Made by a program: the position numbers and the translations under genes. A stretch of DNA of 64,000 bases from Amoebophrya sp. A120 (Eukaryota > Protista > Dinoflagellata): positions 7,611,882-7,675,881 of the forward strand of contig CAJINV010000003.1 in assembly GCA_905178155.1 (NCBI GenBank), written 5' to 3'. Of this stretch, positions 856 to 48,400 are shown one piece after another (position 1 is the stretch's first letter; each line of letters starts with the position of its first letter). The notes beneath the pieces were generated by a model. It searched no databases and was not told where the DNA came from. It saw only the letters and a program-made list of their open reading frames with translations.

Positions 856-3382
856 CTACTGGGACACAGTAAGCCCGTCGAGAATCAGCGAGATGTTCCG
901 CACGCCGGTTTTTTCCTCGTCCTCCACTTCGTCGTCTCCGTCGTAGAACGGATCGAACTCTAGCACGTAGCCCAACTGGAGAAACTGGCGAATCAGTTCC
1001 GTCGCTTCCTCTACGTAGCGCCTTCCAGACGTCCCTTCGAAGACTATCTGTTTCGGCCTTGCTTCTGGGCCGTATGTTAAACAGTGCCGGCGCACGCTCC
1101 TCATTATGTCGAAGTCCAGGCCCTCACAGTCTAACTGGAGCAACTCCGGGCGCTGAACGTTGTAGACTGCCAGCAACTGCGTGTAGCTAACCGCAGGGAC
1201 CGTTTTAGAACTCTCGGCGTCCACTATCCCGAGTCGCTGCAACCGCCCGTAGAAGTAGCTGTATCCTGTGTAAAAACGTCCCCACCCCAGAGTCGAGATG
1301 GGGATTTTGCAACATAAACCTAGAACTTTTGGGGGTCACGCATCACAAGTTGCAGTCCGTAGTGTAGTGCAGGTTCGCAAGGCCAGCTGCATCAGAAATC
1401 CATCTGCTCATCCTGGTCACAGCATTACAAATGCCGAAACACGATTGGAAATGCCTTTCATGGGGAAGCGCATTACAAGTGTTCCTGTCATTGCAAATCT
1501 GCATGACAACTCTGGGGTGGCTACGTTTTTACACGGGATAAGCTGGGTCGCTGGTTCACGCTGGCGCAAGCGGTTGCGAGCTGTCCCGTGTGGTAGCAGG
1601 TCCAGCATTTCGCTCGCTGATGGAGAGAGCACGCGCAGCCCGTTCGCCACGACTTTTCCAGTTCCACAATCTTGTCCTTTGGTACGAAGTAGACTGGTAT
1701 GCATTGCAAATCCATCCGGGTCTGGATTATCATGCGAAGCGTGGTCATTCCCCCCGCAAGGATCTCTATTGAGAGAGTTACAACAATAAAAGCATTTGAA
1801 GTAAACTACCTAAGAATACCTAAAGCAAAAATTATACTACGCTAGGAAAAATAGATCCTGGTTTGAAAGCATGAATTTTCGTGCTTTGGAACTTGCTATC
1901 GTGAGTGCAATTCTGGAAGTGGATATTTAGGGCTTGAGCGAGAAGAAGGAGAGGGCAGTTGTGTGCAGAGAGGCAAATAAGCATGACAGATTTGCAGAAT
2001 AGAAGAGGAGGTTAGGAGGAAGAAGAAAGAAAAGGTTAGGAGGAAGAAGGAACGAGCAGAGCACTTCATAACTTTTGCGTTCTTGTGGTCTGCTGGTGAT
2101 GAACGTCTTCACCAACGCCTTAAGCGCCGGCCTAAACCTGCCGTTTGCCTACGGGAAGCAGACCGATCATGATCCGCGGCTCCAGCCTCGCGCAACCCTG
2201 CAGGAAAAGACACCGGTGGGCGCAGGCGCAGCTAGCTTTTCTCACTGCGCTCAATCTCTCATCATGAATTTAAATTAATGGTTAGAGCTAGAGCTAGAAC
2301 AGGACACAGCGTATCTTTATGCCTGATCTTCGGCATTTTTCGCACATATTAATTGGGATAGGATGCATTTTACCACGTGGAGCCATGTGCTGCATTTTGA
2401 ATTCGTTAATACATTTTTCTGAGTTTGTCATGCAAAAGATTCATATTGCATAAAGCGTCACTCTATCTGGACCCAGACAGATCCGCAGAGGATAACTGTG
2501 GCGGGCTTGGAATATTTCTCCAACGCCACGACATACGAAGCTTCGTGATCCGTGGCCGAACACTGCGGCGCTTTTTCCGTCTTGCCTGTCGGCAGACTGC
2601 CGGGCTGCTCTCCCCGCCGGTCTTCCTCTGCCGGCGACGCCTCGTGTACGTCCCGCCCCCGCGGAACCCCAACCATCGCCACATTGGCCAGGTTGAGGTT
2701 GCTATGCTGCGGTAGTTCCTGCAGGACCCAAGGGATCACGTCAACCGCCAGCCCATAGATATTCTCAGCCGGCTCCCGCATCCACCTGTGCCACTTTTTG
2801 TAGTAGTGATAGTTTCCAGCTTATCGTGAGAAAAAGTCTTACAGTTACACATTGTGTTGCGGGACAAGCTCAAGCAACAGAGATAAAACCTTTGTCATGT
2901 CGAAAATGCTTGCGATGCTCGTTCTGTGAAAGCTTTTTTTCGTGATTTCCGCATTACGCGTTTTCTTTGTCATGCAGGACAGCACTCACTGTGTTGCTGA
3001 AGCTGCAGCAAGTGTGTCACCGTAAAACTTTTTCCTTATCCTTGCATAAAGTGCTGCACGAAGAAAAGGACCCGTCTGCCAACGGAAACACCGCGTGGCT
3101 GATGGTGTTGTAGTTGCTCGTCCCTATTTCGCAGAAGTGGATCACTCGGCGCGGGCTCCCTGGCGACGGTTGATACTCCGTTGACAAAAAACGAGTCAGC
3201 TCGCACTCCTCCGCAGAACTTAGGGGCTCCATCCATGGTTTTTGCCCTGCGTCCCGTCGCAACCGCTTGGCATCAGGTACCGCTTCAGAACTCCCACCAT
3301 CGCTAAGGACTTTCGAAAGATGATTCTCCGGCGGGCTGCTTCGACGCTTTCCCGTCGGTGATGCTTCCGGCACATCAGTCAT
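856..3382 (-). CDS. FkbM-family SAM-dependent methyltransferase-like protein, multi-exon
   Basis: Motifs are spread over the exons: FCEIGTSNYNT (motif I-like), GLAVDVIP...NVAMV, and PELLQLDCEGLDFDIM...QIVFE (KxDxEG-like). Removing element 1262-1540 plus one TSD joins NQRPS|YFYGRLQRL. The middle intron boundaries (about 1765-2470) are uncertain. Confidence 0.65.
1262..1540. mobile_element. Introner/MITE family A (279 bp), TSD AGCTG
   Basis: TIR tatcctgtgtaaaaacgt...acgtttttacacgggata; agctg at 1257-1261 and 1541-1545; frame restored on removal. Confidence 0.95.
2822..3042. mobile_element. Decayed introner-like intron, compatible with GC-AG splicing
   Basis: Inner inverted repeat gaaaaagtcttacagttacaca vs reverse-complement gaaaaagttttacggtgacaca; left end tatc; TSD decayed; removing the element plus 5 nt keeps frame. 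Confidence 0.55.
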
Positions 3383-5503: not shown

Positions 5504-8500
5504 TCACGCAGCAACCCGCTCAAACTTAAGCTTGGCCCAAAATTCCGGAGTCGCAAGCTCCGACTTTTTCAAATATTCCACGAACCGAGCGTTGACTCTG
5601 GTCCGCTCGCATACTTGTTTCAGCGTGCGCTGGATAGAGGGCTCGTCCCGATCCTTGAAGAAGGCCTCCGTTTGCTCGGCGCGCTCAAATGTGCTACCAC
5701 TGCAGGACACAGACACCACGTGCTGCAGAAGCGAACCTGATGGTTTGCGAATCCTCACTTGTAGCTAGCATAAGGAGCACTTGGCGTGACACCGCAGAAA
5801 AAAAATGAAGAACAAGAACATGTGCGTAACCCTGACATAACAACTGTGGACCTCAAACAAGAGGTCATGCAGCAAAACACAAATAGAGCATAAAAAGTAC
5901 TGTTTGCGCTCGCGATTCTTTTTTTGATCGTGTCGTAATTTTCTCGCATCCAATCAAAGATGAGCACATTTCCAGGCTTGCCCGACCCTGAGACGCCGGT
6001 CATCGGATAGAAGAAGTCCTGGATCTTGATATCATAGGTTTCCTGCAACGTCTTTCTCTTGTACTCCACGTTTTCCACGTAACCGAGGGCGGCGTAGATT
6101 GCGAGCCGATGCGCTTGTTGCGTTTGCGGGTCCTTCATGATCTGCACAAGCTGCTCCCATACCTCGACGCATCGCTCTTTGTTTTGCAGCATGACGGTAA
6201 ACACGCTGCGCTTGTAATCGTCTGGCAGAAGCCCAGTCTTGCGATCCTGAACGAATGCCTCGTACCTTCGTGCCGCCTCCGCTTGCACCGCCGGATCCGA
6301 AGGCGCAAACCTTCATGTAGTTCTACTTCTTTCGGAAGGTGTAATTCCATTTTGCTTTTTTTGTCTACGCGAGGCTTTTTCGCATTGATTTTCTCGTCAT
6401 AAAGTAATAAACTATTCCTCGAAACAAAGAGAAATCCATGTAGCAAAAAAGCCGCACGCCTCGCACAAACCGAAACGACTAAAAAAACGACCAGACTCTA
6501 AAATGAAATAGTATACGTGGACATGAGTCCGATCAAGACCCCTCGGAGTTGCTTTGTCAGATCGTCATCGGCTTCTTTGTGGTCCCAACCAAGCTCAGCG
6601 CAGGGTCTCTGAATGAGGTCGCTGACGAATTCTTGGAACTTGGTGTAAACACTTGATCCCATTTCTGGCAGCACGCGGTCCAAACCGTCGATCGCGGCTT
6701 TCAAAGCACACCACACGTTGCTGTTGTCCTCCTGGGCAAACCCACGCAGCAGAAAAAAAAGCGCGGTTGGATCTTCCAGGTGTCCCGACCGGCAGAGTTC
6801 CATGGTGTCCTGCAGTACTCCGATCCTGAATTAGCAATGTTTGTGGATTCGACCCTCATGACAATGCCGATTGCACTCGTCACAGAATATTAAGTACCGC
6901 ATGACTTTTAAATTAGTGCTGTGTCCATAGATGTACGAGTGTAAAATGCACTCCTCTTATTTTGCTGCTTCTGAGTTTCATGCAATGATGCTCTGTATCG
7001 TCGTTGCTTCAGGAATGAGTAAGCAAAATGGACTGCTAGCAAAAGTACCGGTCCTCGGCGCAAAGTTCCTTTGATGCGACCGCTTTTGCCAAATCCTCCA
7101 ACAGTGCAGTTCCCTCGTAGAGCACACGCACGGGCACAAATTGCCCCGCATTCACCTTTACCCACCGACTGCCCTGCGGGAGCTTGAAAGTCTGCTGCTT
7201 CTCGTATCCTGCGTAAACACAGGGCCCACGACACCCAGTAGTCACGATGGGGAATCTGCTACACAAATCAGCAAGTTTTGGCTGTCGCGCGTGACACACA
7301 CATGAGAAGTAGTACACAGGCTGCCAGGAAAGACACGTCGTGTTTGGCTAGTGCAGCCGGGTCACGAATCGACTTTCGTAATCATGTGATCTCTAGTAGA
7401 GCTCGAGCATGACAAGTTCGAGTTCCAAGATAGCATTAGAAAATGGGCACTCACGTGGCTGCGCAGGGGAAACATTTCAGGCACGCAGATTGGCATGATA
7501 ACTCTGGGCGGGCGGGGACGTTTCTACACAGGATATCTCGTTAAGAAACTGGATCTCCTCCTGGTAGCCGTTGTTCGTTGCGAGAAGTATTGGCACGGTC
7601 CAGATCTTCTCGTCATCTCCTTCCTGGACCGAGTTATCAGCCAAGTACCACCGCTGGCTCAGCTGGAGCGTGGTTGCGTCAGGCCGAGAAACGGTGAGAA
7701 CCGGGAACCTGCAGCACGAGGAATGGATGCATTTTTTTCGTTCTTTAGCGGATTCAAAATTTCTGAAGTAATGAAGGAGGTTTTAGATAGTAACTGCGCC
7801 AGCAAGGGGGCTGCTCCGAAAGCACATACCTACATTCTCGTGCCAGAATGCCCTTGGCACCTGATACCGACCGCTGCGCCACACTAAAATAGAAAATGCA
7901 CTTGTCTACGTACTCTATTGAGGTACTTTTTTTACCCCATTTGCTCGGTCCAGCCCTTCATGATCTCCGCCACCGGCTTGCCGCTGACCTCCTCCCAGGC
8001 CTTCCAGAGGTCAAAGGTTTGCGTGTTGCCATACTTGTGCCGCTCCATGTACAAGCGCAGCCCCTCCTGAAACTTCTCCTTCCCCAGCGTGGCGAAGATC
8101 ATCCGGCACACGCTCCCGCCCTTGCAGTAGCTGATCGCATCGAAGATCTCGTCCACCTGTTCGGCCTTCGGGATGGGCACCTGGATCGGGTGCGACGACC
8201 GCAAAGAGTCCAATCGCAGCGCCGCCGCCTGGTCGTCGCACACGAAACTTTCCCAGATCCGCCACTCGGGGAACAACGCATCCGCGGAGAAGGTCTGCAT
8301 AAAGTTCGCAAAGCCCTCGTTCAGCCACAAATCATTCCACCACTCCATGGTCACCAGGTTTCCGATATCCCACAGAAAAAAGTTGGCAGGGCATATTTTG
8401 TAATGCAAAAATAAATACACAGAAAGATCTGTCATGGGCGGCCTCATAGCATGCTGCTTAGGATACGCAATACAGTTTTTTTTGTGTATTTATTTTTGCA

Positions 8501-10143
8501 TTACAAATGTGACCTGCCAGCTTTTTTCTGTGGAATATCCGAACCACTGGTGCGCCAGCTCGTGGGTCACCACGCTGGCCACTCGCTGCTTTCGCGCGGT
8601 GGAGGTTTTGGAAACGTCCAGTAGCAAATCAATCTCGCGGTAGGTGACGAAGCCCCAGTTCTCCATCGCGCCCGCGGCGAAGTCGGGGATGGCGGCCATG
8701 TCGCATTTGGGGAGCGGGTAGGCGATCTGGAAAAACTCGTTGTAGAATTCCAGACACCGGGTGGCCACCTCCAGCGAGAACGACAGCTGCTCCGCCTTGC
8801 CCGGCACCGACATGCACCGCACCGTCGTCTTGGGCCCGTGCACGCCCGCGGTTTCTTGCGTCAGGTAGTCCAGTTCCCCGACCAGGAACGCCAGCAAGTA
8901 CGTGCTCATCTTGGGTGAGGTGCCGAACTTGAACGTGACAGTGTTGTCCGCCTCGTTACTGATTTTTGACACCTCCGGCATATTGGAGAACGCCTGGAAC
9001 TTCTTGTCCACAACCATGGTCACGTCGAACACGCTATGCAGAGGCAAACGGGTGGGGTGAAAGAGGAGGCGGCGTAGTCCTACAAAGCCTTGTGTCGGGG
9101 GCAACGCCAGTGGCTGCTACTTTCTCTTATACCGGTAGTCTCCTGCTCCTCTGTAGAAGTTCACCGAAAAATGCGCCTCAAAAGATCCAAGGGTGGTCTG
9201 AGGAAAAAAGTACTTGTTCAGTGCTAGTCAAGAAGTGCGAAAGACGAAGACGCGCGAGAAAGACAAATTGATGTTGATAGCAAAAGTATAATGCATGTCC
9301 GCGTCATTAATGACATAATGATAATCTTTATATTCGTTTCTTCGGTCGTGTCTTCACTATCATGATCTGTTTGTTCAGTAGCAGCTGCACATCTCGAGTG
9401 GCAGCCCAGATTTCGCCCCCGTTTGCATCTACACAATTCGCTTTTCGTGCTGGCTCATCCACGCAGGGAAAGCAGCGGCGCGCGTCGATGGCCTCGAACT
9501 GCGTTACCGCCAAACGCCGTTTCTGTCCAAGCGTGTCCACATAATTTGATTGGTAAAACCCGCACATCTGGTCATTCAAAATACCTAGAATAACAAATCA
9601 AATGAAGATTTGTCGCCAACTCACTACGTACGTCACCACGTGCTGGCAACCTGCGTCTAGCCATACCATAGCAAGAACGAACTGTAGTCAGGCAGTCGAA
9701 ATATTACGCGCTCGGATCATCATGTTGATATTTCAAAAGATACGACGCGCTTTCACGCTGCATCTCCCATTACATTCGCATTCCAAGAAAGCAAAAAGTA
9801 GGAACTATAACGTACCATCGAACTTTGGGATGCACAGCTTCCCGACGGCTTCGCCGACCGGAAGAACGTGGTCCCCAAAAGAAATTACGACGGTCGTTTC
9901 TTTTGGCTTGAAGGTGATGCTCTCGGCCGCCAGTTTTTCTCCCGTTGCCGCGGGCGTGAAAAAGGCATCACTGAAGCAGAGCTCCTTAGCATTCAGGTAC
10001 AGCTCTGAGGTCGCAACCTCCACGTCGTAGGTCACTTCCAGCTTGCCGGAGAATACGCAGCGGTCCAAGTCCGGTCGCAGCTCCAGTTCGTACAAAATAG
10101 GCACGGCATCGTCGGGCAGAATTGCCCGATCGATTTCCGCCAT
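5504..10143 (-). CDS. M1 family aminopeptidase (puromycin-sensitive type) with ERAP1-like C-terminal domain, 9 exons
   Basis: [34 protein letters not shown]|[27 protein letters not shown] and WTEQMGFP motifs. Five GT-AG introns plus elements at 7205, 8366 and 9035. Confidence 0.95.
7205..7535. mobile_element. Introner family A, diverged (331 bp), TSD TCTCG
   Basis: tatcctgcgtaaac...tttctacacaggata; tctcg at 7200-7204 and 7536-7540; removal gives EIQFLNE|KQQTFKL. Confidence 0.9.
8366..8537. mobile_element. Introner with long (about 60 bp) TIRs (172 bp), TSD TCCGA
   Basis: tatcccacagaaaaaagttggcagg...ttgtaatgcaaaaataaatacac is mirrored at the right end; tccga at 8361-8365 and 8538-8542; splits HQWFG|NLV. 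Confidence 0.95.
9035..9435. mobile_element. Decayed introner, compatible with a GA-AG intron (9034-9439)
   Basis: tatgcagaggcaaacggg vs reverse-complement tgtgtagatgcaaacggg (15/18); TSD decayed; removing 406 nt gives PARKA|VFDVT. Confidence 0.65.
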
Positions 10144-11041: not shown

Positions 11042-14000
11042 TCAGTTCAACAGTGTGAACTGCTCCGGCCGCAGCTCTCCGAAGTACTGCATGATGTTTT
11101 TGAAAAAGCTTTCAACCACTTTCGTCACGTTGGTCAATTCGGCTTTGAACTTCAGAAAGTCGTCCCGGGAGGCCCCTGAGCTACTAGCGGTAGAAGCGGA
11201 AGCGGCGGCTGCTCCGCTCCCTGCCGAAGAGGAGACGCCAGCCGCTGCCACGGACGCGGATGACCTTCCCGCCCCGCGCGCGGCGGACGCGCTTGTTCCC
11301 GCATTTGCGGCGACGCCTGCAGTGCCGCGCAGGTCGGACTTGATGAACGGATTGCTTTCGAACAGCGACTGCAGCTGGTCTACCTTCTGCTCGAGCTGCC
11401 CCTGCTGGAACTCGAAAAACTGGTTTGAGCCTCCCAGGTAATACGCCACTGCATAGGTCCACTTGAGCATTATGCAAGAAATGGGATTCCTATACTGTAA
11501 CTTCGTGGAACGGCGTAACATGGACGATGGGTGCGTCTGTCATGCTGCTCATGCATTGCACTTGCAGGACCCATTCACACGCATCTTCAAGTAGTACCAT
11601 CGATCTGCGCATGACAGGGTTTTCTTTCATCCTCATGCCAGACATAACTATGCTGCTCCGCCAAAAAAGTATACAGTTACACATTTTTTTTTCTTGGATA
11701 AGCATGCGCCGGCAATCAATTACCTGATGAACGTGTAAAGTGGATAATCGGAAGTAAGTGCCCACACCCCAACATCTTCCTAGCAGCACAACGCACTTAG
11801 TCTTAATTTCCATTTTGCGCTCGTCAAAATCAATCGGTACGCAGCACGGTGGACTCTAGCGCATCCATCACTACATGCGATGTTCTACTACTCGGTGCAT
11901 TCATGATATTTCTTCAGTATTTCTTACCTGTTTTATAGCCTCCTCTAGGAACAAGACATCGTCCCAATTCCCGAACCGCCGCTGTAGATCCTCCATTTTG
12001 CGTCGCACCTCCTCCCGAGTCTTCTTGGAAGCGATAGTCTGTGATTGCGAATGCGCAGCGTATCGTTCGTAGAAGTGTGCATACCTGTAAAGAAGATGCA
12101 AGTTGGAATGGTACGAAAACGGAGTCCGAACGGCAAAAATTATCTGGTCGCAGGCGGTTATCGCTTGCTGAAGCGGGGAGACAAAAATTCTAGCTTGCAA
12201 AGAAGATCCGCATGCTCACTTGACGAGAAGCAAGTTTGTTCCCTACCTGGCAAGATTTTTTTTGCTGATCTCCTTCTCCTCATCTGGCTGCATGAACTTG
12301 TTGCAGGGGCGTCCATCCCGAGTGTGAGAGTAGTTGTAATCATCCGCAAGGCAAAGCCAGCAAAACTGGTGTCCACAGCGACAGACGATGTGCATGCACC
12401 CTGTAAAACATAATCGCGCAGGCAGAAATAATCTTTAACTTTATATGCTTCATTCTATTATTTTAAGTGCTACACTCCTCCGTAAAAGTTAACTTGCATG
12501 CTTCATCTCGTGGTACCCTGCGGAACAACATGAGTCCCAAAAAGATCTTTTTCGTCCAGGTGAACGTCCTTCCTTTATGCTCCAGTTCCGGTTGAAAAGT
12601 GTCACTTCCTATAGGCACGACATGCGCGAAAGAAGACGCTCCTGCTACGTGTGGCCGACATAAAAAAAAACAGATCCATGTGGTTGTACCTTGGTTTTTC
12701 TCGATTGGGTTTTTGCACTTTGGGCAGGATTTGGTGTTCGCCAAGATCCAGGTCACATTCTGTGCTTCATCTTGATTCTTTTCGAGCCATTTAGCGACAA
12801 CGTGGCAGTAAACACCAGCGTGCGCCTCGTGGTTGCAGGTGAAACACCACTTGTACTCGCACGATTCGCACTCCACTTCGCGGCACTGCAGCGGTTGCGC
12901 TGACGCGGGGAACATCGAGTCTCTTCCCGGTGCGGCGGATGATGTGGCACCCGAACTACTGCTGGTCCCGGCGGTGGCGTTGAAATTCGCGAGCAAGGCG
13001 TCTTCCCGGATGTCGGGTGGGGGAGCAGGGGGCTCGGGCTCCGCATTGCGCACCACCTATTAGTTTGGAAGAAGCTGCCAGGTGTCATATCAACTTCTAG
13101 TCCTGTCGGCGAATAGAGTCTGCCCTCATCTCACACACATTCCGCTTCTTCGTGCTCGACAACTAATTTTTCTACTCCTAAGAGACCGGCGCCACCAGGC
13201 GACATTGCGATGGATTTAGGCCGTAGAATCTTAAAGCTGCTTCTTCTATATTTCTTTTCTTGTGTTTCGTCGCTACAAGTTGTAAAAAACATCAATACAG
13301 CAACGATGCCACAGTAAACAATACTCTCATGCGTCGTCGCACTCCTGCAGCTGCCTCGTTGTACCAAGCCTGGGCAGCCGCTAGCCTCTCCGCTACGGGG
13401 CGCGGGCCGGCGCCACCGCCGTCGAGGCCGAACCCTGGTGGTGCTACGGCGGGCAACACTCCGTCACGCTGTGGCGCCATGGCAGCTGGCTGCCCGGTTG
13501 CTCGACCAGCATTGGCGCCGGTCTTCCCGCGTTTCTTCCGCTGGTTTTGGCCCCCATCCTCCTCTCCCGCATCGTCGTCGTTTGTCTTTTGTGCGCTGGT
13601 GGTCTCTGCGGCGGGCCGCTTCGAAGACTTTAACCATGCCATGTCTCGCGCGTTTTCCATCGTGCGGCAGGGTTCGTTTACCAAGATGCAGTTAGCGCAG
13701 TCTGGGCTGGGACACCACTTGCAACGCTGCTGCATGTCCACGAAGCTGCAATATTTTTTTCTTGATACCTTTTCGAACGATGAAAATCTGTGCATCATGA
13801 TCTCAATCACGATCCACGGAACCAACTTCTAGCCGTTTCATTTCTATAGATTCATGACGCGAGAAAGCACTGCTCGGTCTCCTGTGTACTGCAGTTACTT
13901 ATGGCCAATAAGAACAACTTCTACTTTTTGGGGCATTGCATTCAAAAGTCGGCAGAAACGAAACGGTAAAGATCTGGTTGCAGCAGTGCTAAGTACTCTT

Positions 14001-17685: not shown

Positions 17686-19072
17686 TTACTTCTTCTTCTT
17701 GTCAGCCGCCACTGGGGCTTTGTTTTTGCGCAACTCCACCGGCACCTGCTTCTTCGCCCGCTTAGCGCAGCACCCGCAGCAGCACACTGTAAAAAAAGCG
17801 GTGAAATGTGTAGTAAAATTTACCGAAGTACGTAGTCGCAACGTAAGTTGCTAGCATAGGAAAAAAAACAATATGGCGCAAGCTTCTTCGGTACTGTAGT
17901 AGGAAAAAAAACAAAAAGGTATAAATCAGAAAACAATATATTAAGATGGAGTACCGAAGCAGAACATCTTGAGCATGTAGCCGAAGACGAAGTAGCAGAG
18001 GAAGAGGGAAACCAGGAGGAGGTCCAAAAACCCGATGCCGGAGAGCTTGCCCGCGTACTGGGGATAATGCTTCTCGAACGCATCGAGAAATTGCTGCACC
18101 AGGCGGAAGGGCTGGGAGGACTCCACGAGGGCGACCACGGGCTTGAGCTTCGCCTGGGTATTGACAGGAAAAATCCCCCCCCCCCATATTGAAAAGGTAT
18201 GCTTCCAAGTATTTGTATTGCGGATTTGAGGTCACAAATCACGTCTGTCTTGCAAGAAGACAAGGGCAGAAGCTTCCGCCCCATTATGGAAGCGGTTTGT
18301 CATGCTGTTGGGCCTAAAGGGGGGCCGTTTGCCATGCTGAACTACTAGACCCATACGCCCCTACCTAGCCCGGGGATCTGGCCGCAGTGCCTCTCTGCAA
18401 TACAAAGCTGATTTGTGGTCACAAATCAGCATCACAAATTTCCGTTTTGATATGGGGAGGGGGGATTTTTCATTTTGATACTGGGTGACGGATACCATCT
18501 CCGACAGGGGGGGAATTCCATTCTTCAATCGGAAGGACTCCGCCTCGCCCTTCACGAGATCCATCTTTTCCACTGCCAAATCATATTTCTCGAGCACCTG
18601 ATCTTTCACGTTCGGCGGGAGCTTGGAGAAAGCCAGCGTGGTGCCCGTTTCCGCCGTGAAAAACAACAAGTCCTTGGTCATCAGTACCTGCCGAAAAAAA
18701 ATTATAACAACATCCCGTGCAAAAATTCTGCGACAAAAGAAGCTCTTTTCTGTAAAAAAATGTTGACTTCGGCTTGACATGTTGACTAAGCAGCTCAGCT
18801 CCTTCGAGGGAGGACTCACAACAAATCTGCTGGATGAAAGGGGACAGCAGCATCTCATGCGCAGGACATGGTAAACGGAGCCGCACTACAAAAAAAAAAT
18901 AATCGTGATCCCCCATGAATGCAGCTTTTTGCTATATTTATACCGAGTTCGAGACGAAGTCGTAAGTGCCGGATGCAGTAAGGAGGGGTTCGGCCTTTGA
19001 TTTCTTCTCGGCTGCAGCGACAGAAGCAGCGGCAGCAGTAAAGGCCGCGGTACGAAGAACAGACTTCATCAT
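17686..19072 (-). CDS. Hypothetical type I membrane protein with signal peptide and C-terminal di-lysine (DKKKK) ER-retrieval motif
   Basis: N-terminal MMKSVLRTAAFTAAAASVAAA; TM segment FLDLLLVSLFLCYFVFGYML; reconstructed tail RAKKQVPVELRKNKAPVAADKKKK*. The 3' introns are tentative. Confidence 0.55.
18159..18480. mobile_element. Introner family D (322 bp), TSD CTGGG
   Basis: tattgacaggaaaaatccccc...catat / atatggggaggggggatttttcattttgata; ctggg at 18154-18158 and 18481-18485; removal gives VSVTQ|AKLKP. The right part is nearly identical to the 54616 copy. Confidence 0.92.
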
Positions 19073-22136: not shown

Positions 22137-25100
22137 TTACGCGACAGCTACTCCCGGTAGATGGACGCAAAAACGCAGGCGAACCACGCCACTGCTTTTT
22201 TCACCGGGCAGGAAGCGCCATTTGATGCGTTGTTTATCAAATCGCTTGAGCAGATGCAACGATGCAAAAACAGTAACGGCGCGAATAAAATCCGTTTCTT
22301 TCCTTTTCCTGATGCGGTCCCATTCATCAATGGCTGCACGTCTGAGTACTGCATCTACAACCTTGCCACCCTCAGAAAGATACTCAGTATCCTGCTTGTC
22401 ATCTTCATCCACAGATAGAGTGCTCCGATTATCGGCTGAGACTCAAGAGGACGTCGCCTTGGTGACATCTACAGTTCACACCACGGCTCTGTGGACGCCA
22501 TAGGCAAGGTCAAATTCATCAAAACCTTCGCGTGCTTAGTCTCGATAGCGCGCAGCATCCATCGTCCCTCCTCGGTCTGCGTTGCTACTTTGTCCACCGC
22601 CGCGTGCCTGTGAAATGAAGTTCTGCGAAAATGATCAAGAGCCACATCGTCCTAAAGACAAATGCACTGCACTTTCGCGGTAGACAGTGTAAAAGACGGG
22701 CGCGTTCACTGCACACTTTTCTGCTGCCACGGGCCAATATGGTTGTTCCACCATGAGAATAATTCATGCAGACCAGCTGCATAGAAGGAATACGGCAACA
22801 TGTTTCGTACCAACTATCCCCACCGACGGCGAGTGCCAGGAGCGCAACGAAAGGGTGCTCGACGGGACTTTTGCACAGCACGCGGGCTTTGCTGAGGAGA
22901 TCGCGGGACAGTGGCCCCGTGTGCAGCAGCATTCCACCCTGCTCGTCCACCACAAGCAGCCTCCCCTCCTCCATGTGCTCGTGCGCCTGGATCCGCAAGG
23001 CTGCGCTGTGCACGGGCACGATTGCGGGATCCGCCCAGTAAACATACTTGTGATGCTTCCAGGTGTGGTCCAGGGCCCAGGAGGCAAGCGGCAGCACTGT
23101 CCAAGCGGAATCGAGAGAGCCCGGCGTGTGCTCGGCCACCTCCAGGTTTGGGCAGTCCACGCCTAGAAAGTTATATGGGAGCTGCTCCAACCAAGCGCGG
23201 TGCTCCGCTGACTTAAAATCCAGGTGCGTCACCACGGACAAAATCAGGATCTCGCGCCGGTCGTGCCACCTCTCAGCAAGCTCCGCCTGCAGTTGAATTT
23301 TTATCTTCAACAGCCCTCACCGATTTGGCATCCCGTCACATCCAGAAAGTACATGATCAGTTGTAGTTTGACAACACGATCATAAATCGAGCTGTGTGTC
23401 CACAGCCCCCATGAAGACAATAAAATCAGTGAATAAAGAGATATGAAATTTATCCCGCCATATCGTTTGGAGTAGACGAACCGAAACGAAAAAAAGCAAG
23501 TTGTTGTACAAACATCGGTGATCAGCAGTACCCATTCCCGGTAACAGACGGCGGCCATCATCGGAAGCGCAACCAAAGAGATGTGCAACACTCGTGTCTT
23601 TATCCGGTGCCGCTTCTGATACTTTTCCTTTCCCGCACTCGTCCCGAAGAGCCCGAAAGACCCCACCTCGAAGACCGTCTTCGCCCACCAGCAAACGAGT
23701 AGCCCCGCAAACGCGACGACGCAGCCGATGCCGACAAAAAGCGCATTAAACCAGTACTGGTGCGGAAACTGGTTGGGTGCTCGGTATTTCTGCGCTCGAC
23801 ACCCGGGCCTCATCGAGCCGAACATCACGTTGTGATGGCCCTCGAGAAGCTCGTCGTGTGTGCGCGCATACTCGTCCACCGCTATGCAATACAAATTTCC
23901 CGTACATGTACAAGATGCATCACAAATTCTACCAATTTGAAGCGTGAAACTTGTCATGCTAAACTAGAATCGAAGGCAAGTTTTGTCATGCGGAGACCGC
24001 ATTTGTACGTGTACGGGAAATTTACTGTGGATAACCGCGAACCCGATCGAATGGAACCAGTCGTGCACTATGTGGTGCATATCAAATGCAAAAATGTCTG
24101 GGTCTGGAAGAGTGGATGTTTGTCATGCTTGTCTGGGATGATTCTTAAATCTGTCATGCACGTTACCCAAGAGCCCAATTGTTCTGTCATGCAGAAACAC
24201 AGTTTGTCATGCAGAATAGGCAACACCTAGAAGCTGAGAAAGCTGTCATGCTGAGCCAGCATTTGTAGCCTCATCATGAGACGCCACCCAGCATCACAAG
24301 TTCCCAGACCCAGACATTTTTACATTTGATAGTGCACTTCTTCGTGGCCCTCCCGAGTGCCCTCGAACATCGAGAGCTCTGCACGAAGAGCCTCATGTGA
24401 CGTATATCGTGGTGCCCGCCGACCTCGCTTGTTCTTCTTGCGCTTTGTTGTAACATGGGTCCGCTCCTCCCGGCTTTCTACCGGCTGTACTGCTTCGGTG
24501 CTTTGATTTTGCGCATCTTCGTCCTGCCTCGACGTCACGGAAACCTGATCACCGACTGCGGTCTTCCCTGCAGTATCAGTTGCCACGGGGGGAGGTAGGC
24601 TGTCCGTTATCTCTGCCTCTTCTTCAGCAAGATTTGCATTCCATTCGCCCGCTGAATCTCCGCCGGCCTGTCCTGATGTGCTGTAATCTTCATTATCTAT
24701 GCCAGTAAACACATCGTCACCTTCGTCCTCTTGCCCTGACGTGCTAGCAGGTCCACCTTTGTTGGATGCCTCCAGCTCCGCAACGTTCGAAGCTGCTTCC
24801 GAAGGAAGAAATAGGAGGTGCTGGGACAAGGAAAGTACTGCAACGACGCCTCCTGGTGCTCGGATCCTGCTGCAGAAAAGCGCAAAAAGCGATCGCGATG
24901 GAACCTGGCTGGCCATGACGCGCTCAAAACATGCGCCGGCACCTGCAAGCGCCGCGGCCTGCGAGTGCCTTTGTGTACCAACTTCAAAATAAACTAGACG
25001 TACATACGTGAATGTTCGTTTTGACATTAGCAGTTTTGGGCAGCACTGCAAGCTTGCTCGACAGAAGAGAAAGACCGTAAAATTTTTGATTGCAAAGTTT

Positions 25101-25324
25101 GATAAACATCGCTCGGTACCCTCTTGATTCCAAAACGGACCAAAACTGCGCATTAGCTGTCCAGGTGTCCAACTCTCACGTCGACGACACATCCCACTCC
25201 TCTTGCGGTTGACTTTTGAGATATGTGAGCCGCACTGTGCCACCATGCATGAGACGCACTGAAATGAAGCTTCTGCAGGTAGAGATGTAACATCGCACAC
25301 TCCTTTTTCTGCTGAAAATTGCAC
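22137..25324 (-). CDS. Hypothetical membrane protein with a possible C-terminal glycosyltransferase-like domain, multi-exon, ends uncertain
   Basis: ORF pieces join in frame after removing elements 24080 and 23883 (EEVH|HIVHDWFHSIGFAV|DEYART) and a GT-AG intron at about 23287-23512. Two hydrophobic segments; YVYWADP weakly resembles the GT34-type WxD motif. Confidence 0.45.
23883..24033. mobile_element. Introner (151 bp), TSD ACCGC
   Basis: tatgcaatacaaatttcccgtacatgtacaa vs reverse-complement tatccacagtaaatttcccgtacacgtacaa; accgc at 23878-23882 and 24034-24038. Confidence 0.92.
24080..24331. mobile_element. Introner family B (252 bp), TSD GTGCA
   Basis: tatcaaatgcaaaaatgtctgggtctgg...ccagacccagacatttttacatttgata; gtgca at 24075-24079 and 24332-24336. 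Confidence 0.95.
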
Positions 25325-26165
25325 TTCTAGGAGAAATTCGAAGTTGCGACGTTCCGCAATTTCTGATGCTTCGCTTCTTGCATCGCGCGTGTAATTCAGG
25401 TACAGCCATTTTTCCTACATTCGTTAGTAAACAGTTTCAACAGAGAGCTGCAGGCTTCGTTTCTCATTAGCATGTAGTGTCTGGAAGGTTGATGCCTTCT
25501 TCGAAAAACGCGTGGCAGATACTACCGTTTCTTTATTCTGGGTTTAGTAGTTGCAGAGAAGAGAAGATTCATTTCTAACCGGCAGGCATGGCATTGGTCA
25601 CAGGTTTTGTAACTGCAGACGTGTTGACGCGGAGGTCGCAAGGACGGGTGTACCACCACCTCTATCGTGCGTTCGTGTTACTCAAGTGTGGGTAAGGCTG
25701 TAGTGTGTGGCAGGCATCGACCAAGCGTCCGACCATGAATCGGTGCGTCTGCGTATCTCAATCTTATCAATGCGTAGCAGGGTGGTAGGCGGTATGAAAA
25801 ATAGACTTGCTGACGAAACTGAGCCTCCTGGCGTGCGGAGTGGGAAACAATTACTCAAACGGGAAACTTTAATAACACCGATAAATCAATTACACAGGCA
25901 GTGGAGGCGGTCGCTCGATGGACTGTTAATTTTGACAAAGTTGTTCTGGCTAAATACAACTGATTCAATAAAAATTGGTGGTGAAAGACATGGAGTTCCG
26001 TCGTAGGTAGCAGTGCGGTCGGTCAACGCGGAACGCGTCACACCGCGCCTGCAAAGGCATGATGCTGTAAATCAATTTACAAACCTCGAAGTACATCTTC
26101 ATGCGAGTTCCTTCTGTACAAGGGACGTGTAAACGCCAAATCAGGTCTCAAATGCAGGCTGCAGC

Positions 26166-29802: not shown

Positions 29803-30781
29803 CTACAGGTTCGGTTTGATGCGCAGGTAGTTCGGCATGCGCTCTGCCTTTCGCACAGGCACGAAGGATTGGATGTCGTAGCAGGTCACGATCGGCGCCG
29901 GCTGCACTTGCCCCGCAGCGGGCATTTTGCCGAAGTTCACGCTGCGAAATCTCTTCACTTCGGCCTCACGGTAGCTGTGGTTGAAAGGGCTGGGCTTCAG
30001 GTTGTTCACCACATTGAACTCACCCGTGGTGCTGTTAACCTCCGTGATCCAGTGCCCGCTGTTGGGGTTCTGCTCGGGGGGTGGCACGGGCTTGGACGCG
30101 GAAGCGTAGATGAACCCGTTAATGTCGTAATTGTTCAACTTCTGGTGCTTAGTGGGCTCCCATCCACTGCAAATTTGCCTGGGTCTGGAAATATTAAAGT
30201 TGACCTTGTATTGTTGTCTGTTCTTCAATTTTCCAGTTCCAGTAGATTCTAGTGTATGACCCACAGTAGCTGTGTTGTACTAGCTTTGTTATTCTTTGTC
30301 ATTTTTGTAATCATGCGCGCTGCGAATATCATAGATGGGCAACAAGCATTCGGAAAATCCGTCATGCTTGGCTGACGTGACCAGAGTTTCTCGTCCACAG
30401 TTCACCAGCATAACATGTTCATCCCAGACCCAGATCGAGATTTGCAATGCATAGCTCCACATACGGATCGCCTGCTTTGACCTTATCGCGCTGGGAGAGG
30501 TCCCAGGTTAAGCAAGACCGCACACCCGACTGCGCAACGTTCTTTTTGAGCTCTTCCGTTTGTGTCGTCATGCGCACGACCTGCCCATTGCGCTTTTGGA
30601 TCCAGTCGTCACCCACCACCCGGAAATGGTAATTGCCGGTCCCGAAGGCGCTGGCCCAGTAGGACCGTGGCTCGCTGTGCGCACGCACGTCGCCGCGCCC
30701 GTAGGTGGCAGGAGGATTGGAGCCGACCACCGGCGTTGCCGGATTCGGCACTAGCTTCGTGTGCACGGGGTTGCTCGGCAT
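29803..30781 (-). CDS. Hypothetical Pro/Asn-rich protein (about 226 aa), two exons
   Basis: Two ORFs join in frame (DPYVE|PTKHQK) on removing element 30161-30453 plus one TSD. Confidence 0.7.
30161..30453. mobile_element. Introner related to family B, diverged (293 bp), TSD GCTCC
   Basis: catccactgcaaatttgcctgggtctggaa...tcccagacccagatcgagatttgcaatgcata; gctcc at 30156-30160 and 30454-30458. Confidence 0.88.
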
Positions 30782-33004: not shown

Positions 33005-33495
33005 GATCCTGCTGAACTACCAACGAAGTTTTTCGTGCACGATCGCGCTGTCGCTTTTCAGGCAAAGAGAACTGCCCGACGAGCGTTGTATCGTGAACGA
33101 AAGATCCTCGAAGACAGACACAGACGGCTCGAAAACGACTGCTACTGCATGAGGAAGAAAAGTATAATAAAAGGATCTGCCTCTGCTGCTGCTCGCAAAA
33201 ATTGTCCATATTCCGCAAATTATCTGAACCTTTTCATGAATTGCAGTCACAAGTACACGGACTGAACCTGAAAATTGAACACGAAATTTCCTTGCGCACG
33301 CAACTAATATGTCACTTCGTCGCGGCAGAAAAAAGACACAGTGGAAAGCAGAAATGAAAGCCAGAAGGTAACCATGTTGTCAGCAAGGCTGCAAGATGAA
33401 GAACTTGTACTAGAGTGATGGTGCGGCAACGTGCAGCATGCACATGGGGAGATTGCGGCGCCTGTGCGAGGCGAGTCAGTTTCTGTCCAGTGAGT

Positions 33496-39475: not shown

Positions 39476-42400
39476 CTAGAGCATCCATTTGTAGAAGGCG
39501 ACCTGGCGGCGCAGCGCCTCCAACTCATGTTGCTCGGCGATGGACTCGATAGTCCGAAACACCAGCTTCACGTCGCGCGTGGGGACCGCATTGGAGAGGG
39601 TAGAGGAACAGTAGATACAGTATTCGAAGAGGTGGTCGTCCTTGAGCTTGCGGCAGTTGCCGCACGTTAGCGTCTGCGACTGGAAGCTGCTGACCACCTT
39701 GTGCAGGCAGTCGATCAGCCGGAGCTCCATCTGGTCCGTGGAAAACGTCGCCGCGGAACAGGCCACGCACCACCACTTGCCGGGCTCGTCGTAGGGATTC
39801 GTGGCCACATCTACATCGTACACCACGGAGCAGCCGGGGCATTCGCAGTTCGGAATCTTCAGACTCAAGTAGTTCGGCCGCCACTGCTCCCGCAGCACGT
39901 GCGGTTCGTCCAGCTTCAGGGTCTGCAAGACGAGGATGTGAAATAGCTTGTCGCAAGACTCCGCCAACTTTGCGTCCAGCTTCAGAAACGTCATCAGCAG
40001 CTGAGCCCACTCGAGTCCGACCGCGCGCCAAGGTCGTAGCGGAGGCGGCACATTCGCAAACTCCCACTTCTTGCCCAGGGTGTGCAATAAACTCTCCCAG
40101 TCCCGCAGCTGCTTCAGCTCCTGTCCGCGCGCCAGCCCCCGCCCCGGATCATCCGGGTCCCGCAGCTTCTTTCTGCGACGCGCAGCTGCTCCACCTCCCG
40201 TGGTCTTCGCGAGGATTTGGCTCTTTAGTGTGACACCCACGTCCTGGAACACCTGGACCAAGCGCGAATTCTTTTCTTGCATCTCGTGTTGCCGCTCGGC
40301 ATCCAGGTCACCGGCGTCATCACTTCCATGAAAGACTTCGTCCGGGTCGTTACTTCCACCGCCCGCGCCGTCGGCTCGGTCCTCCTCCTCGTCCTCGAAC
40401 TCGGAATCGTCCGAGTCCAAGCGATCTGCGTTCTGTTCCAGTTCTTGAATCTGGTGCCGCAAGTGCTCAGCCTTGGCCTCGTCCTCGCTGCGGTCCAGGG
40501 GTAGCCGGCGCAGGTACACCTGCGCCCGGCGTGCCAGGTCCTGATTCAGGAACTCCTATCCTGTGTAAAAACGTCCCCAACCCAGAGTTGTCATGTAAAT
40601 GTGCAATGACAGGAACATTTGTAATGCGGATCTGCATGAGAGGCACTTCCAATCGTGTCTTGGACTTTGTAATGCTGTAAACAGGATGAGAGGCTGGCTT
40701 TCTCATGCGGCTGCCCTTGCTGGACAGCACGACGCTACAGATGGAAACTTGTCATGCAAAGCTCCCAAAACTTGGAGATTTGCGTTGCAGATTTACCAAC
40801 TTGACTATGGGGTGGGGACGTTTTTACACAGGATAACTCCTCGAGTTTCGCCACCATGTCCTCCTCGATCGTTTCAGTATCACCTGTAAAAATGTCTGGG
40901 TCTGGAAGAATCCAACTTGTCATGCTGATTAATTTTGGATTCTAAAAAAATCTGTATTGCATGAGCAGCAAAGAGAGCCCAAGTTTTGCTGCACGGAAAG
41001 AGCATTTGTCATGCGGCACAGGCATCAGAAAGCCCTCACAAAATCTGTGATGCTAGGGCATGCATCACAGACATCAGGAGTCATGCAAAATGTGCATGAA
41101 AAACCTGGCAATCTTCCAGACGCAGACATTTTTACGTTTGGTATTCAGCGACCAGGTGCATCTTGCGGCCGCCCACGCGGACCGACTCCTGCTTCCGCTC
41201 GTACGCGAACTGCATGGCACACCGGAGGTACTCCTCGAGAAAGAGACCGAGCGACCGCTGGACGCCCTGGGGCAGCTGCTCGCACCCCAGCGCTTTCCAC
41301 TCGGCGCGGTCGAACGCCACTGCGCCCTTTTCCATCTCAACGTAGGTGCCGTCCTCCGAGACCACGTCCGCAAGCGGGATGGAAAAGCCCACGTAGTGCT
41401 GCGGGTCGTACCACATCAGCCCGTAGTACGCCTGGTCAACGCAGTGCTCGTGCAGACAGCACTCGAGAAGCTTCAGTAGCGGGTCCTGCAGGACCGAGTT
41501 CCGTATCTGCAGAAAGCTGTGCATGGCCTCCTCGAAGGAAAGCTTGCCGGTGGCGATCAGCACCCGGTTGGCCGACGCGTGAATCACCTCGCACTGGTTC
41601 AGCCGCAGCTCGCGCAGGAAGAGCTCGAACCCCTTCTGCGAGTACGCGTTCACGCGCTTCAGCAAAGCCGGGTCGTACAGAAAACTCGCCGGGGAACTCA
41701 GCCAACTGCAGAGGTATTCCGTCAACATGGTAACGGTCTCGTTGTCCCGCTGGGCGTTCTGCAATCGCAGCATGAGCCGCACAACGGCAACGGGCAGATT
41801 CGAAACCAGCATGGGGTTCCCAAGCGCTTGCTCCACGTACTGCTCCACGTTATCCAGCGTGATGTCGAACTCCGCAGCAAAAATTGCCATTTCTTCGAAC
41901 AAGGTTCTCTTCGGCTTGTCTTTATTTTCCCCCTCGTCGCCGTCGTTCTCAAGAACCTCATCGTCGTCGTCCTCGGCGATCAACAAATTGAGTCTCTTTC
42001 GTTTTCTCGTCCTATTTGCAGTGGAGCTGGAACTACCCCCTTCCTGGTAGTTTCCGCCCGGGGAAGCGTCGTGGTCACCAGTAGAGTTATTGCCTTCTTC
42101 ATCATCTCCTTCCACATCCATGGGCTGCACCGCGGCATTTTTTCCTTTGGAACCGGACGCGGAACCGATGCTGCTGGGTCCTCTCTTCACGGGATCGACC
42201 CCACCCAACTCGTGCCATGCGTGCAGGTTCTCCTCTCCAAATTCCGTGATCATGTGGTCCTCCAACAGCAGCTCAAGGTACTCGTCCTTGCAAGCAATCA
42301 GGTCCGCCTTCACCTGTCGTGTCAGCTCGCCGACCGCTTCCGCTTTGAAGACCATGCATCGCACGGCGGACACCAGGGCCTCGATTGCTGGGATACCACA

Positions 42401-45400: not shown

Positions 45401-48400
45401 CGTTTCAACGGGGCGGCGGCCCCCGAGATGGGATCTTTGTCGTCCAGCATGAGCTCAAACATGGTTCCCTGCACGTGGGCGTCGTTCCACTTCTTCTGGA
45501 TCTTCTGCAGCCACTGCGGCAACGGAATCCGCGGAACCGGGTTGCCGTACCGCTGCATCACGGCCGGGATGCATATGATTTTCAGGATGGACGCGCCCAG
45601 CCGCTCCTTGTAGTACCCCCAATCGATGATGTCCCGCATGTCGGTAGAAACCAGATTTTTATCGTTCAGCCACTCCTTCAGATACGTGCGCTTCAGCGAG
45701 TCCTCCAAGTTGAACACCTTCATGGGAATCGCGCGCTCCGTCACCTTCGCGCCCACTGGCTTCCGGGCAATTACCAAATGGCACGTAAGCTTCTCGTCAT
45801 CCAGAATCTGCGGACCGAGGATGTACGCCAACCGCTTCGCGCAACAAATCTGAGTTTTTGCGTTCGATTATCCTTCAAGAACTACATCGTGATCATTCGT
45901 GATAGATATTAGAGAAAGCAGCAGTTCCGCGTTTGTTCAGAAAGTGCAAGAAAACGACCACACGTATGAACGTGTTTGTTTACTCATGGAAGAACTACAA
46001 TGCATGATGATGATGATGATGGTGGCCGAGATGAATGTTGATGATGCTATCGAAAAAAATACCTGCACGGATTTCTGGCCGTCCGCTGTGTCGTTGACGG
46101 ACTTCGACATGGATTTGGTTTCGGATACGAGAAAGGTGATATCGTCGTCCGTGAGAGAGGCCCCGCGGCTATCCAGCACGTCCACCCAGCGATCCGCGAT
46201 GCGGCCCAGCTCCTGGTAGACTTCTGGCCGGGAGGAGCCTTTGAGGAAGGCGCCAGATCTGAAGATTTCATCTTGGAACACCTGAATCATTTTTAACTCG
46301 CCGCGGCGCTTCACCTCAAAGCCCTTCAGCTCCGCGATGCTGCCGTCGTCCTCCCAGACACAGCATCAACTGCAAAAATGTCTGGGTCTGGAAGATTGCA
46401 ACTTGTCATGCTGTTTTTGGACTCTAAAAAATTTTGTATTCGATGACCAGCAAGGGGGGCGCCGTTTGTGCTACACGGACAGGGCATTTCTCATGCGGAA
46501 GGTGCATCAGGAAGCCCTCTAAATGTCTGCGATGCTAGGTCATGCATTACAGGCATCATGGTTCATGAGAAATATGCATGACAGATCTTGCATTCTTCCA
46601 GACCCAGACATTTTTGCATTTCATACACAGTACCTTTTTTTCAGCATCTTGTCCTCGTCCGTGGAGGCAGGCAGGATCATGCAGCGATAGGGCCCGTCGA
46701 CCTCGAACAGGATACTGTTTTCCTTGGACACTTTCCACTCCGTGGCCTTCACGATCTGCGATTTGTTCTTCCCATCCGCGTTGTTCGCGGCCAGAATCTC
46801 CTTCTTTTGCTCCTCGGTGAGGTTCTCCTGGGCCTCCCCGGTTTTCTTGTCCACAAACACCTCCGTGCCGTTCTGGTATTGATGGTTGGCGTACTTTTGG
46901 TCCACCCGCAGATTCAGCACCGAGTTCGGGTACGTCATTTTTAGCTCCTTCCCGGCCTTGGTCTTGAACTTGAACGTGTCAGGGAAGCTTTTCGGGATCA
47001 TGCATGTTATAAGAGTGCCAGGATCTTCGAACTTTTCAAGGTTAAAAAAGTGGCTTTGCCTGGTTTAGGTAGTAGTACTCGTATTGTACTATTATTGTGT
47101 AAGTACGCATGTCGTCTGATTTGACGCATCTTCAGCGAGCGCAGTTTTGAACTACTACAGCCAGCTAGCTTAGCAGGTCGAGTGAATACATTTGGTCAAT
47201 TAATTTCGACGCATGTTCTTTTGCCCTGTCTAGCTTTTTCATTCAACTGTGAAAGTTTCGAAGATCCTGGCGGTTGCATACACCAAATCCCGTCCGTGTC
47301 CAACTCGATGGGCAGCCCTACGCGGTCCACAAACTCGCGCGCCTCGCGAATCAGGTTACTGCCCGTGAAAGTGGTGATCCCCGCCATCTCCATGCTGTGC
47401 CACCTCGCGCCCGTGCGCATCACGTACCCGTAGAAACTGTTCAAGATGCACTTGTGCGCCAGCTGCAGCGAATCGTAGAGCAAGCAGCGGTCGTTGGCCT
47501 CCATGATCTTCACCGGGTCGCCGGACTCAATCGCTTTCTCCTTCTTCTTGCCCTATCCTGTGGCAAAACATCCCCAATTCTGCATGCTCAGCGTGTTTCT
47601 CATGCGGAGCCCCATGAGAAGCGTTTTCTACTCGTGCCTTGGAATTTGTAATGGTGCGCCAATCAGAGTAATAGGCTAGTAGATCTGTGACGCTGCTGAA
47701 CAAGCTAAACACGATTGCACTACGAGGCCACGTTTGTCATGCGCAACAACCTAAGCTGGCTGATTTGTCTAGCAAATCTCCCATCTTGACTATGGAGTGG
47801 GGAAGTTTTTACACATGATATGCCCCACTCCTTGTTCTTCCGCTTGTACACGTACCGCCGGTCGCGGAAGTTGCGGACCGTGTCCACATAGAAACTGTTT
47901 TCCCGTTGGCACACAATATCGACCTTGTCCTCGTAAAGCGAGTTCTTCAACCGCTTGTACACTTTCTGACTGTACGCGCGCGCGGCTGCGATGGTTTCCT
48001 TCGCCTGGTGTTGAGCGATGATTTTTATTTTTCCGCGTTGTGGTCACTAACTGAAGAACGACTGGAAACGCGAAAAAAAAATCGACAAATTTATTGGATT
48101 CTCGAAACAAGCGAAAAAAAAAATAAAGTGCTGTTCATTTAGCAAGCACGAAGTTGATCCGTAGTTGCCCTTCATCACAAGAACAGCTGATTGCCGCACA
48201 AAATGGAGCCCCAGTTTTTATTCCAACTAAAGAGTTTTAATACCTGTTCGGCTTCTGTGAGCTCCTTCCATGGCACGCGGGTGAGCTCTCCCTTCTCACG
48301 GTGGTTGTACTTGTTCTGAGGTTCGGCCAACTTGTGCACCAAGTTCCGCACCTCGCCCTTGGAGGTCTGGAAGAGCTCGTACCGACACTTCCACTCCATT

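Follow-up and report, generated by a model that had tools for sequence, protein, structure and literature searches.

The element at 24080..24331 is a 252-bp introner, a MITE-like non-canonical intron with TAT..ATA ends, in a window of 64,000 nucleotides of Amoebophrya sp. A120 DNA (the window being the whole stretch that was analysed). Its terminal inverted repeat (TIR) arms lie at 24080..24107 (+ strand) and 24304..24331 (- strand), with an inverted-repeat score of 26 over 28 bp. The arms are flanked by the target-site duplication (TSD) GTGCA at 24075..24079 and 24332..24336, on the + strand in both cases. The initial annotation had described five direct copies of an octamer in this element, with spacings of 31, 33, 20, and 39, and an inverted copy near the right end, and all of these were located. 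Motif copy 1 (24121..24128, +) stands at position 42 from the left end, copy 2 (24152..24159, +) 31 bp past copy 1, and copy 3 (24185..24192, +) 33 bp past copy 2, followed by copy 4 (24205..24212, +) and copy 5 (24244..24251, +). Copy 6 (24291..24298) is on the - strand at position 34 from the right end and points inward. The element belongs to a family of 24 copies. The host gene segment, 22810..25414 on the - strand, has no Pfam match, and its four exons form one 649-codon stop-free frame when the junctions in probable RNA contigs are used.

None of the data sets that contain the stretch is recorded as RNA. Probable RNA contigs of runs X3 and X4, both from one sample, skip this element and three others in the window, at 24075-24331, 23878-24033, 18154-18480, and 30156-30453. 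Each skip is exactly the element plus five bases, which is one duplication. The 151-bp element (23883..24033; TSD ACCGC; skip of 156) has sites at 23917 (-), 23952 (+), and 23984 (+) and a further motif copy within its TIR. The 322-bp element (18159..18480; TSD CTGGG; skip of 327) has six matrix sites, and the 293-bp element (30161..30453; TSD GCTCC; skip of 298) has a CAT left end and two internal matrix sites only. The same contigs also skip CT..AC introns, which places the transcript on the minus strand. Six equivalent cuts exist for each skipped element, and none of them yields GT..AG. Among the best-supported joints listed for run X1, none of the four element joins was present. Raw RNA run X9 gave no cover of the window exons, and its only match was to the end repeat, from another locus, where the octamer again stands at position 41. 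Removal of the element and one duplication leaves an open minus-strand frame over about 150 nt on either side in 21 of the 21 elements tested, and it is this frame restoration that suggests removal from RNA for the elements at 40-57 kb. In addition, the RNA of 24080..24331 folds into a long terminal stem (z -6.7), which would fit removal guided by end pairing.

When the window was scanned for TAT..ATA ends flanked by a 5-bp repeat, 22 candidates were obtained, compared with 0-2 in three simulated windows. The working set of 23 elements consists of these candidates minus a weak one at 16235, plus the elements at 2822 and 47008, which have no clean duplication. A 279-bp polar element (1262..1540; TSD AGCTG) has five sites, all on the - strand, and is followed by a 797-bp long derivative (1698..2494; one-mismatch TSD) with few sites. 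A degenerate element without a matching TSD (2822..3048) has three sites, and its right end was set by eye. The 331-bp element at 7205..7535 has the TSD TCTCG, the 172-bp near-palindromic element at 8366..8537 (TSD TCCGA) has sites 34 and 33 bp from its ends, and a 230-bp element with the TSD AGCAT lies at 11471..11700. Further to the right are a 279-bp element at 40557..40835 (TSD ACTCC), which is of the family of 1262 in the opposite orientation, and elements of 266 bp (40878..41143; TSD TTCAG), 262 bp (46364..46625; CACAG), 267 bp (47554..47820; TGCCC), 238 bp (48513..48750; CATCG), 397 bp (49104..49500; CTGTT), 226 bp (50798..51023; CATGA), 259 bp (51082..51340; GCTCC), 222 bp (51631..51852; CCCGC), and 319 bp (54616..54934; TTCCA). 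The 325-bp element at 51915..52239 and the 216-bp element at 54995..55210 have one-mismatch duplications. In the families of about 150 bp, such as 23883-24033, an outward site is followed by an opposite site 35 bp further in, with sub-spacings of 17-18 bp.

About ten elements interrupt the gene for the catalytic subunit of DNA polymerase epsilon (39476-52621, - strand), which matches the Pfam domains zf-DPOE, DUF1744, POL2_thumb, and DNA_pol_B_exo1. The 273-bp element at 47008..47280 lies between the polymerase epsilon domains; its ends pair, its TSD has decayed, and it lacks motif sites. Cutting out 278 bp (or 281) at this position gives an open frame, and the frame points to its removal from RNA. 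Siteless and with well-paired ends, this element offers a natural test of whether splicing requires the motif. Other matched genes of the window are also on the - strand, namely an M1 aminopeptidase (5755-9116), a RING/IBR ligase (12463-14766), a 2OG-Fe(II) oxygenase (20640-21494), and an aldehyde dehydrogenase (31499-33016).

The octamer is concentrated in these elements. TGTNATGC has 59 matches in the window, compared with 8.72 expected (sd 3.07; maximum over 100 shuffles 18). Under an order-3 Markov model, TGTCATGC ranks first among the over-represented 8-mers of the window. Fifty-five of the 59 matches are inside the 23 short inverted-repeat elements, which total 6,603 bp or 10% of the window. 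The k-mer comparison of elements with controls that the initial annotation proposed gave 52 octamer matches in 20 window elements, against a dinucleotide-shuffle mean of 1.8 (maximum 6, 200 shuffles). Six non-element introns defined by the probable RNA contigs had 0 matches per 1,863 bp, and GC-matched non-element tiles of the window had 2 per 16,700 bp. In related loci, the density outside elements was 0.29 octamers per kb overall and 0.50 in GC-matched tiles, compared with 12 per kb inside; the higher outside rate in these loci is probably due to unmasked diverged elements. The recurrences reported for other elements were located at 1501, 51711, 55028, 18298, and 54754 (previously given as about 54755), and in the 8366, 23883, and 2822 elements at 8399/8498, 23917/23952/23984, and 2968. 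The enrichment holds over matched controls and is not explained by simple homology among families, the two points on which the annotation had said it could fail. The observation is confirmed, and it is stronger than first stated. After masking of the motif, no second motif of similar breadth was found, only A-rich words and half-sites. Viral contigs and Rfam gave no match. The ApiAP2-type motif TGCATGC is one base shorter and occurs 83 times in non-element DNA against 87.5 expected, and this candidate was dropped.

Further copies were obtained by scanning metagenome contigs with one end pattern, which gave 130 stretches from one assembly. Of these, 127 loci were used (671,581 bases, some overlapping), a sample biased to the family type that served as query. 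They contain 428 distinct elements, compared with 0 in 300 kb of simulated DNA, and the window elements match them at up to 95% identity, as dispersed repeats. Although the duplication was not a search criterion, an exact duplication of 5 bp flanks 290 of 414 strong end pairs, compared with 4 bp in 3 and 6 bp in 1. The target site has no base preference (n=266). The ends begin with TAT, followed by about seven variable bases and a run of at least three A; in the end logo, A stands at 0.76-0.91 in positions 11-14. TAT was a search criterion in the main scans, and a TAT-free scan gave many TAT starts among the matches listed. The elements have the properties of MITEs, being short, TIR-bounded, flanked by a target duplication, and without coding capacity, with no Pfam match above cutoff in the long derivatives. 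After 7 elements longer than 460 bp were dropped, 442 elements fell into 65 families and 22 groups without a BLAST link between their interiors. Eleven end types are found among the 31 families that have at least two copies. Between end types, TIR positions 16-30 have an identity of 0.20-0.42, which is near chance, compared with 0.64-0.88 between left and right ends.

Several features of the ends and of the long derivatives were observed alongside. The family-specific part at TIR positions 15-32, for example 24094-24111, is often a doubled 6-mer (GTCTGG GTCTGG, GTTACA GTTACA), and the lag-6 autocorrelation at these positions is 0.47 over all end types, compared with 0.28 in shuffles. Private changes at TIR positions 4-15 occur at 1.15 times the spacer rate (1.65 times among the closest copies), and left-right identity dips at positions 4-8. 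This variability may be caused by alternative end versions swapped between ends or families. Long derivatives with intact or near-intact duplications are found at L032 2284-3314, L035 11024-11995, L072 765-1461, and L023 3862-4492 in the loci and at 1698-2494 in the window. The L032 derivative contains a nested element, and the others contain several hundred bases foreign to the short families, with no Pfam match above cutoff. An 873-bp element at L051 13016-13888 has its own end type (a doubled GTAGAC), an exact 5-bp duplication, and a single motif site, and it is possibly of a different or older lineage.

Expectation-maximisation gave a motif of about AAAYYTGYVWTGC, with roughly 5-6 sites per element. 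The exact 8-mer is present in 58 of the 65 family medoids and in 19 of the 22 groups without a BLAST link, for which shuffles gave a mean of 1.5. Over all 11 end types, 405 of 408 copies contain it, and 348 copies have a pair spaced by 31-33 bp. Mismatch to the family majority is 0.051 in the strong motif columns and 0.174 in the spacers (15 families). Private changes in the motif occur at 0.40 times the spacer rate (233 elements) and at 0.32 times in the closest band (45 elements). Overall, the motif changes 2.5-3.4 times less than the spacers, and this also holds at non-CpG positions. Between groups, the spacers within pairs have an identity of 0.317, compared with 0.270 when shuffled, and contain a weak inverted half-site 15-16 bp in. 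This faint likeness (32% versus 27% identity) suggests that the families likely share a remote common ancestor.

The sites also have a set geometry. Adjacent same-strand spacings of 31-33 bp account for 62 of 185 among the medoids (null 7.7, maximum 18) and, when only the 22 unlinked groups are counted, for 19 of 59 (null 2.4, maximum 10). The distance from the end to the first inward site has peaks at 33-34 and 41-45 bp. The tentative helical phasing of the initial annotation stands for the 31-33 bp pair and for the two first-site peaks, which are about 10 bp apart, but not in general. The spacing of 39 is off-multiple, and general phasing was rejected, since the adjacent spacings that fall outside 30-34 bp (81 and 28 of them) have no 10.5-bp periodicity (p 0.88). 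Phasing of the distance from the end (R=0.19) gave p 0.052 in the 22 groups and 0.0002 in the 65 medoids, which are non-independent, and it comes mainly from the two peaks. Site orientation depends on the family, with sites inward from both ends in some and in one direction throughout in others. Overall, inward and outward sites are equally common (48.5 vs 46.9), and mirror symmetry with inward-pointing sites was discarded as a rule for all families. A weak outward copy of the motif lies at TIR positions 4-13 (p 0.017, 300 column permutations).

The orientation of the motif relative to transcription bears on whether it is read in DNA or in RNA. The transcript strand was called with a codon model, which was confident for 314 of 449 junctions, and neighbouring calls agreed in 221 of 224 cases. 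In the 314 strand-called elements, 855 motif sites are sense and 799 antisense. Most families insert both ways, such as the family of 24080..24331 (8:10) and a polar family (9:9), and two small families are one-sided (5:0 and 0:4). Strongly polar elements are split 57:50 relative to the transcript. A spliceosomal cis signal of the branch-point kind would be expected on a fixed strand, and neither the overall counts nor the polar elements follow this pattern. The lack of strand bias speaks against a splice signal in RNA and against an extended hairpin, and it fits a double-stranded DNA site.

The elements are assigned to the introners of the Amoebophrya A120 type, and no transposon superfamily is named for them. 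As described in the available part of PMC7789003, A120 introners have TIRs with TAT, seven variable bases, and an A run, direct repeats of 3-5 nt, and non-canonical ends, and they lie in co-oriented genes. The window elements share with them the end signature, short direct repeats, a size of about 100-330 bp, and base composition. Compared with that description, one exact duplication length (5) was found here, directly outside TAT..ATA. Among the rows listed (21 of 58) in Gozashti et al. 2025 (PMC12130899), A120 family lengths such as 252, 260, 148, 279, 305, 320, and 208 bp match, and the families are mostly classed as 'TIR DNA, Unknown'. These matches agree with an origin in Amoebophrya A120 or a close relative, likely a parasitic marine alga. 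According to the available part of Farhat et al. 2021 (PMC7789003), A120 introners make up about 1,950 families, each treated separately, no U1 snRNA was detected, putative transposases were found in A25 only and not in A120, and general transposase-driven mobilisation was rejected. The shared internal motif, the 31-33 bp pairing, and the distance from the ends are not described in the available parts of PMC7789003 and PMC12130899, and the motif is likewise not described in those of PMC9860276, PMC11453091, and PMC12005148. Farhat figures S19-S25, other Gozashti datasets, and Roy et al. 2023 could bear on this point. Thus, the elements are already known, and the shared motif and its geometry were not found in these portions of the published descriptions.

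It is probable, judging from the sequence pattern, that the motif is the double-stranded DNA site of a single transposase that mobilises all families in trans. A common transposase binding site had been proposed in the initial annotation, and the proposal is consistent with the presence of the motif in all end types, its conservation relative to the spacers, its set distance from the ends, and the lack of strand bias. Because no transposase was found, we infer the binding enzyme from these properties. A multimeric transposase would grip the motif arrays through its DNA-binding domains, as do hAT and pogo-like transposases with subterminal repeats. The pair of 31-33 bp, equal to three turns, would place two subunits on one face of the helix. 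Cleavage by the enzyme would take place at the invariant TAT ends, and insertion would have a stagger of 5 bp. TIR positions 16-30 differ between families yet match from left to right, and they therefore likely form the paired stem by which the element is removed from RNA. In this view, jumping would depend on recognition and splicing on pairing, as two separate tasks.

A transposase domain was sought in 42 frames of the window, 94 of the 202 longest locus frames, and 21 frames of long derivatives, and none was found; this small sample does not imply absence. No cognate autonomous element was present in the window or in the 672 kb of loci. A 6,197-bp autonomous candidate in L034 was a false pairing, as both ends were in ordinary short elements with host genes between them. 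The candidate at L062 476-2934, which contains a 415-aa frame without a Pfam match, is likely a chance pairing too.

The main rival to the transposase site is a host factor or domesticated transposase that binds the motif on DNA and thereby flags the element for removal during transcription or for handling in chromatin. In this case, the motif would be kept by post-insertion selection on the host gene, alone or beside a role in jumping. This explanation is considered unlikely, and it predicts the lack of strand bias equally well. Changes in the motif are depleted even between the closest copies (0.32), and selection after insertion would give the same pattern. A duplication-clock test of such selection gave a point estimate of 0.34 with a CI of -0.86 to 2.06, which does not separate such selection from a role in jumping alone. 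A DNA host mark is also consistent with the undetected U1 snRNA and the lack of a transposase in A120 reported in the available part of PMC7789003. However, the 30161 element is skipped exactly in spite of its two internal sites and CAT end, and the siteless 47008 element, whose removal is suggested by the frame, persists inside polymerase epsilon. In addition, site density falls slightly as the duplications decay (2.21, 2.28, 1.73, and 1.57 per 100 bp; 453 elements, rho -0.086, p 0.066). The initial annotation had also suggested that the motif marks elements for the removal machinery. Such a mark is disfavoured at the level of RNA sequence, given the insertion in both orientations and the persistence of motif-poor elements, one of them inside polymerase epsilon, but a DNA-level mark is still a candidate. 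A less probable, speculative variant joins both roles in one protein, a transposase turned host factor, which would read the arrays for copying and for chromosomal marking that leads to exact pre-mRNA removal. Such a protein would take the place of recognition by U1, which was not detected, in tens of thousands of non-canonical introns.

A further explanation is that the motif is a passive relic of one ancestor with an internal repeat of 31-33 bp, in which the octamer is kept only by homology or mutation bias. The TAT ends and 5-bp duplications common to all families agree with this, as do the slight between-group likeness of the paired-site spacers and the end types of larger families in some singleton groups. 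Nevertheless, the strong motif columns change far less than the adjacent spacers, with non-CpG positions included, and the motif survives where the interiors have no BLAST similarity. Shared ancestry explains the origin of the motif, not its retention. The contrast between motif and spacer conservation contradicts the relic reading, which is largely refuted and is given very little weight. A splicing signal at the RNA level is given equally little weight; here, a small RNA or an RNA-binding protein would dock at the motif, or the motif would lengthen the terminal hairpin. In its favour, elements leave probable RNA without GT-AG ends, the RNA of 24080..24331 folds strongly, and inverted copies at opposite ends could pair. 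Against it, the sense and antisense counts are equal, polar families insert both ways, 25 strand-called elements with at least 3 sites one way and none opposite have no pairing partner, and the commonest motif form is not its own reverse complement.

A transposase site of the proposed kind has partial parallels in known systems. In the available part of PMC10368747, the hAT element Hermes has 4-bp subterminal sites, AAG[T/C], bound by BED fingers, together with 8-bp duplications and a target preference. The A120 elements are like Hermes in their short repeated sites inside both ends, often in asymmetric orientation, with one copy within the TIR. In contrast, the A120 site is 8-13 bp long, is paired at 31-33 bp, and is common to unrelated end types, and the frames searched contained no hAT transposase. 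The hAT5 group, as far as the available part of PMC12730594 describes it, has a 5-bp duplication, which the window elements match; its repeated subterminal sites are matched by sequence pattern only. Emigrant is a MITE with subterminal repeated motifs bound by the Lemi1 transposase acting in trans (PMC1636448, available part). It resembles the A120 elements as a non-autonomous element with subterminal repeats, and a transposase acting in trans would be their counterpart to Lemi1. Unlike the A120 elements, Emigrant is pogo-like, consists of one family, and has a known partner, and it is not presented as an intron in that part of the paper. IS3EU/GingerRoot elements share the TA..TA termini with A120 elements, but their duplications are usually 6 bp according to the available part of PMC10045372, a length found here in only 1 of 414 end pairs against 290 with 5 bp.

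How A120 introners move, and how they are removed when neither a splice consensus nor U1 has been detected, are questions raised in the literature. An invariant internal site of fixed geometry would tie the roughly 1,950 families together into a single system. The motif pair beside an end could serve as bait for the missing protein, and the motif as a signature for autonomous copies. Mutation of the motif could separate jumping from splicing cleanly.
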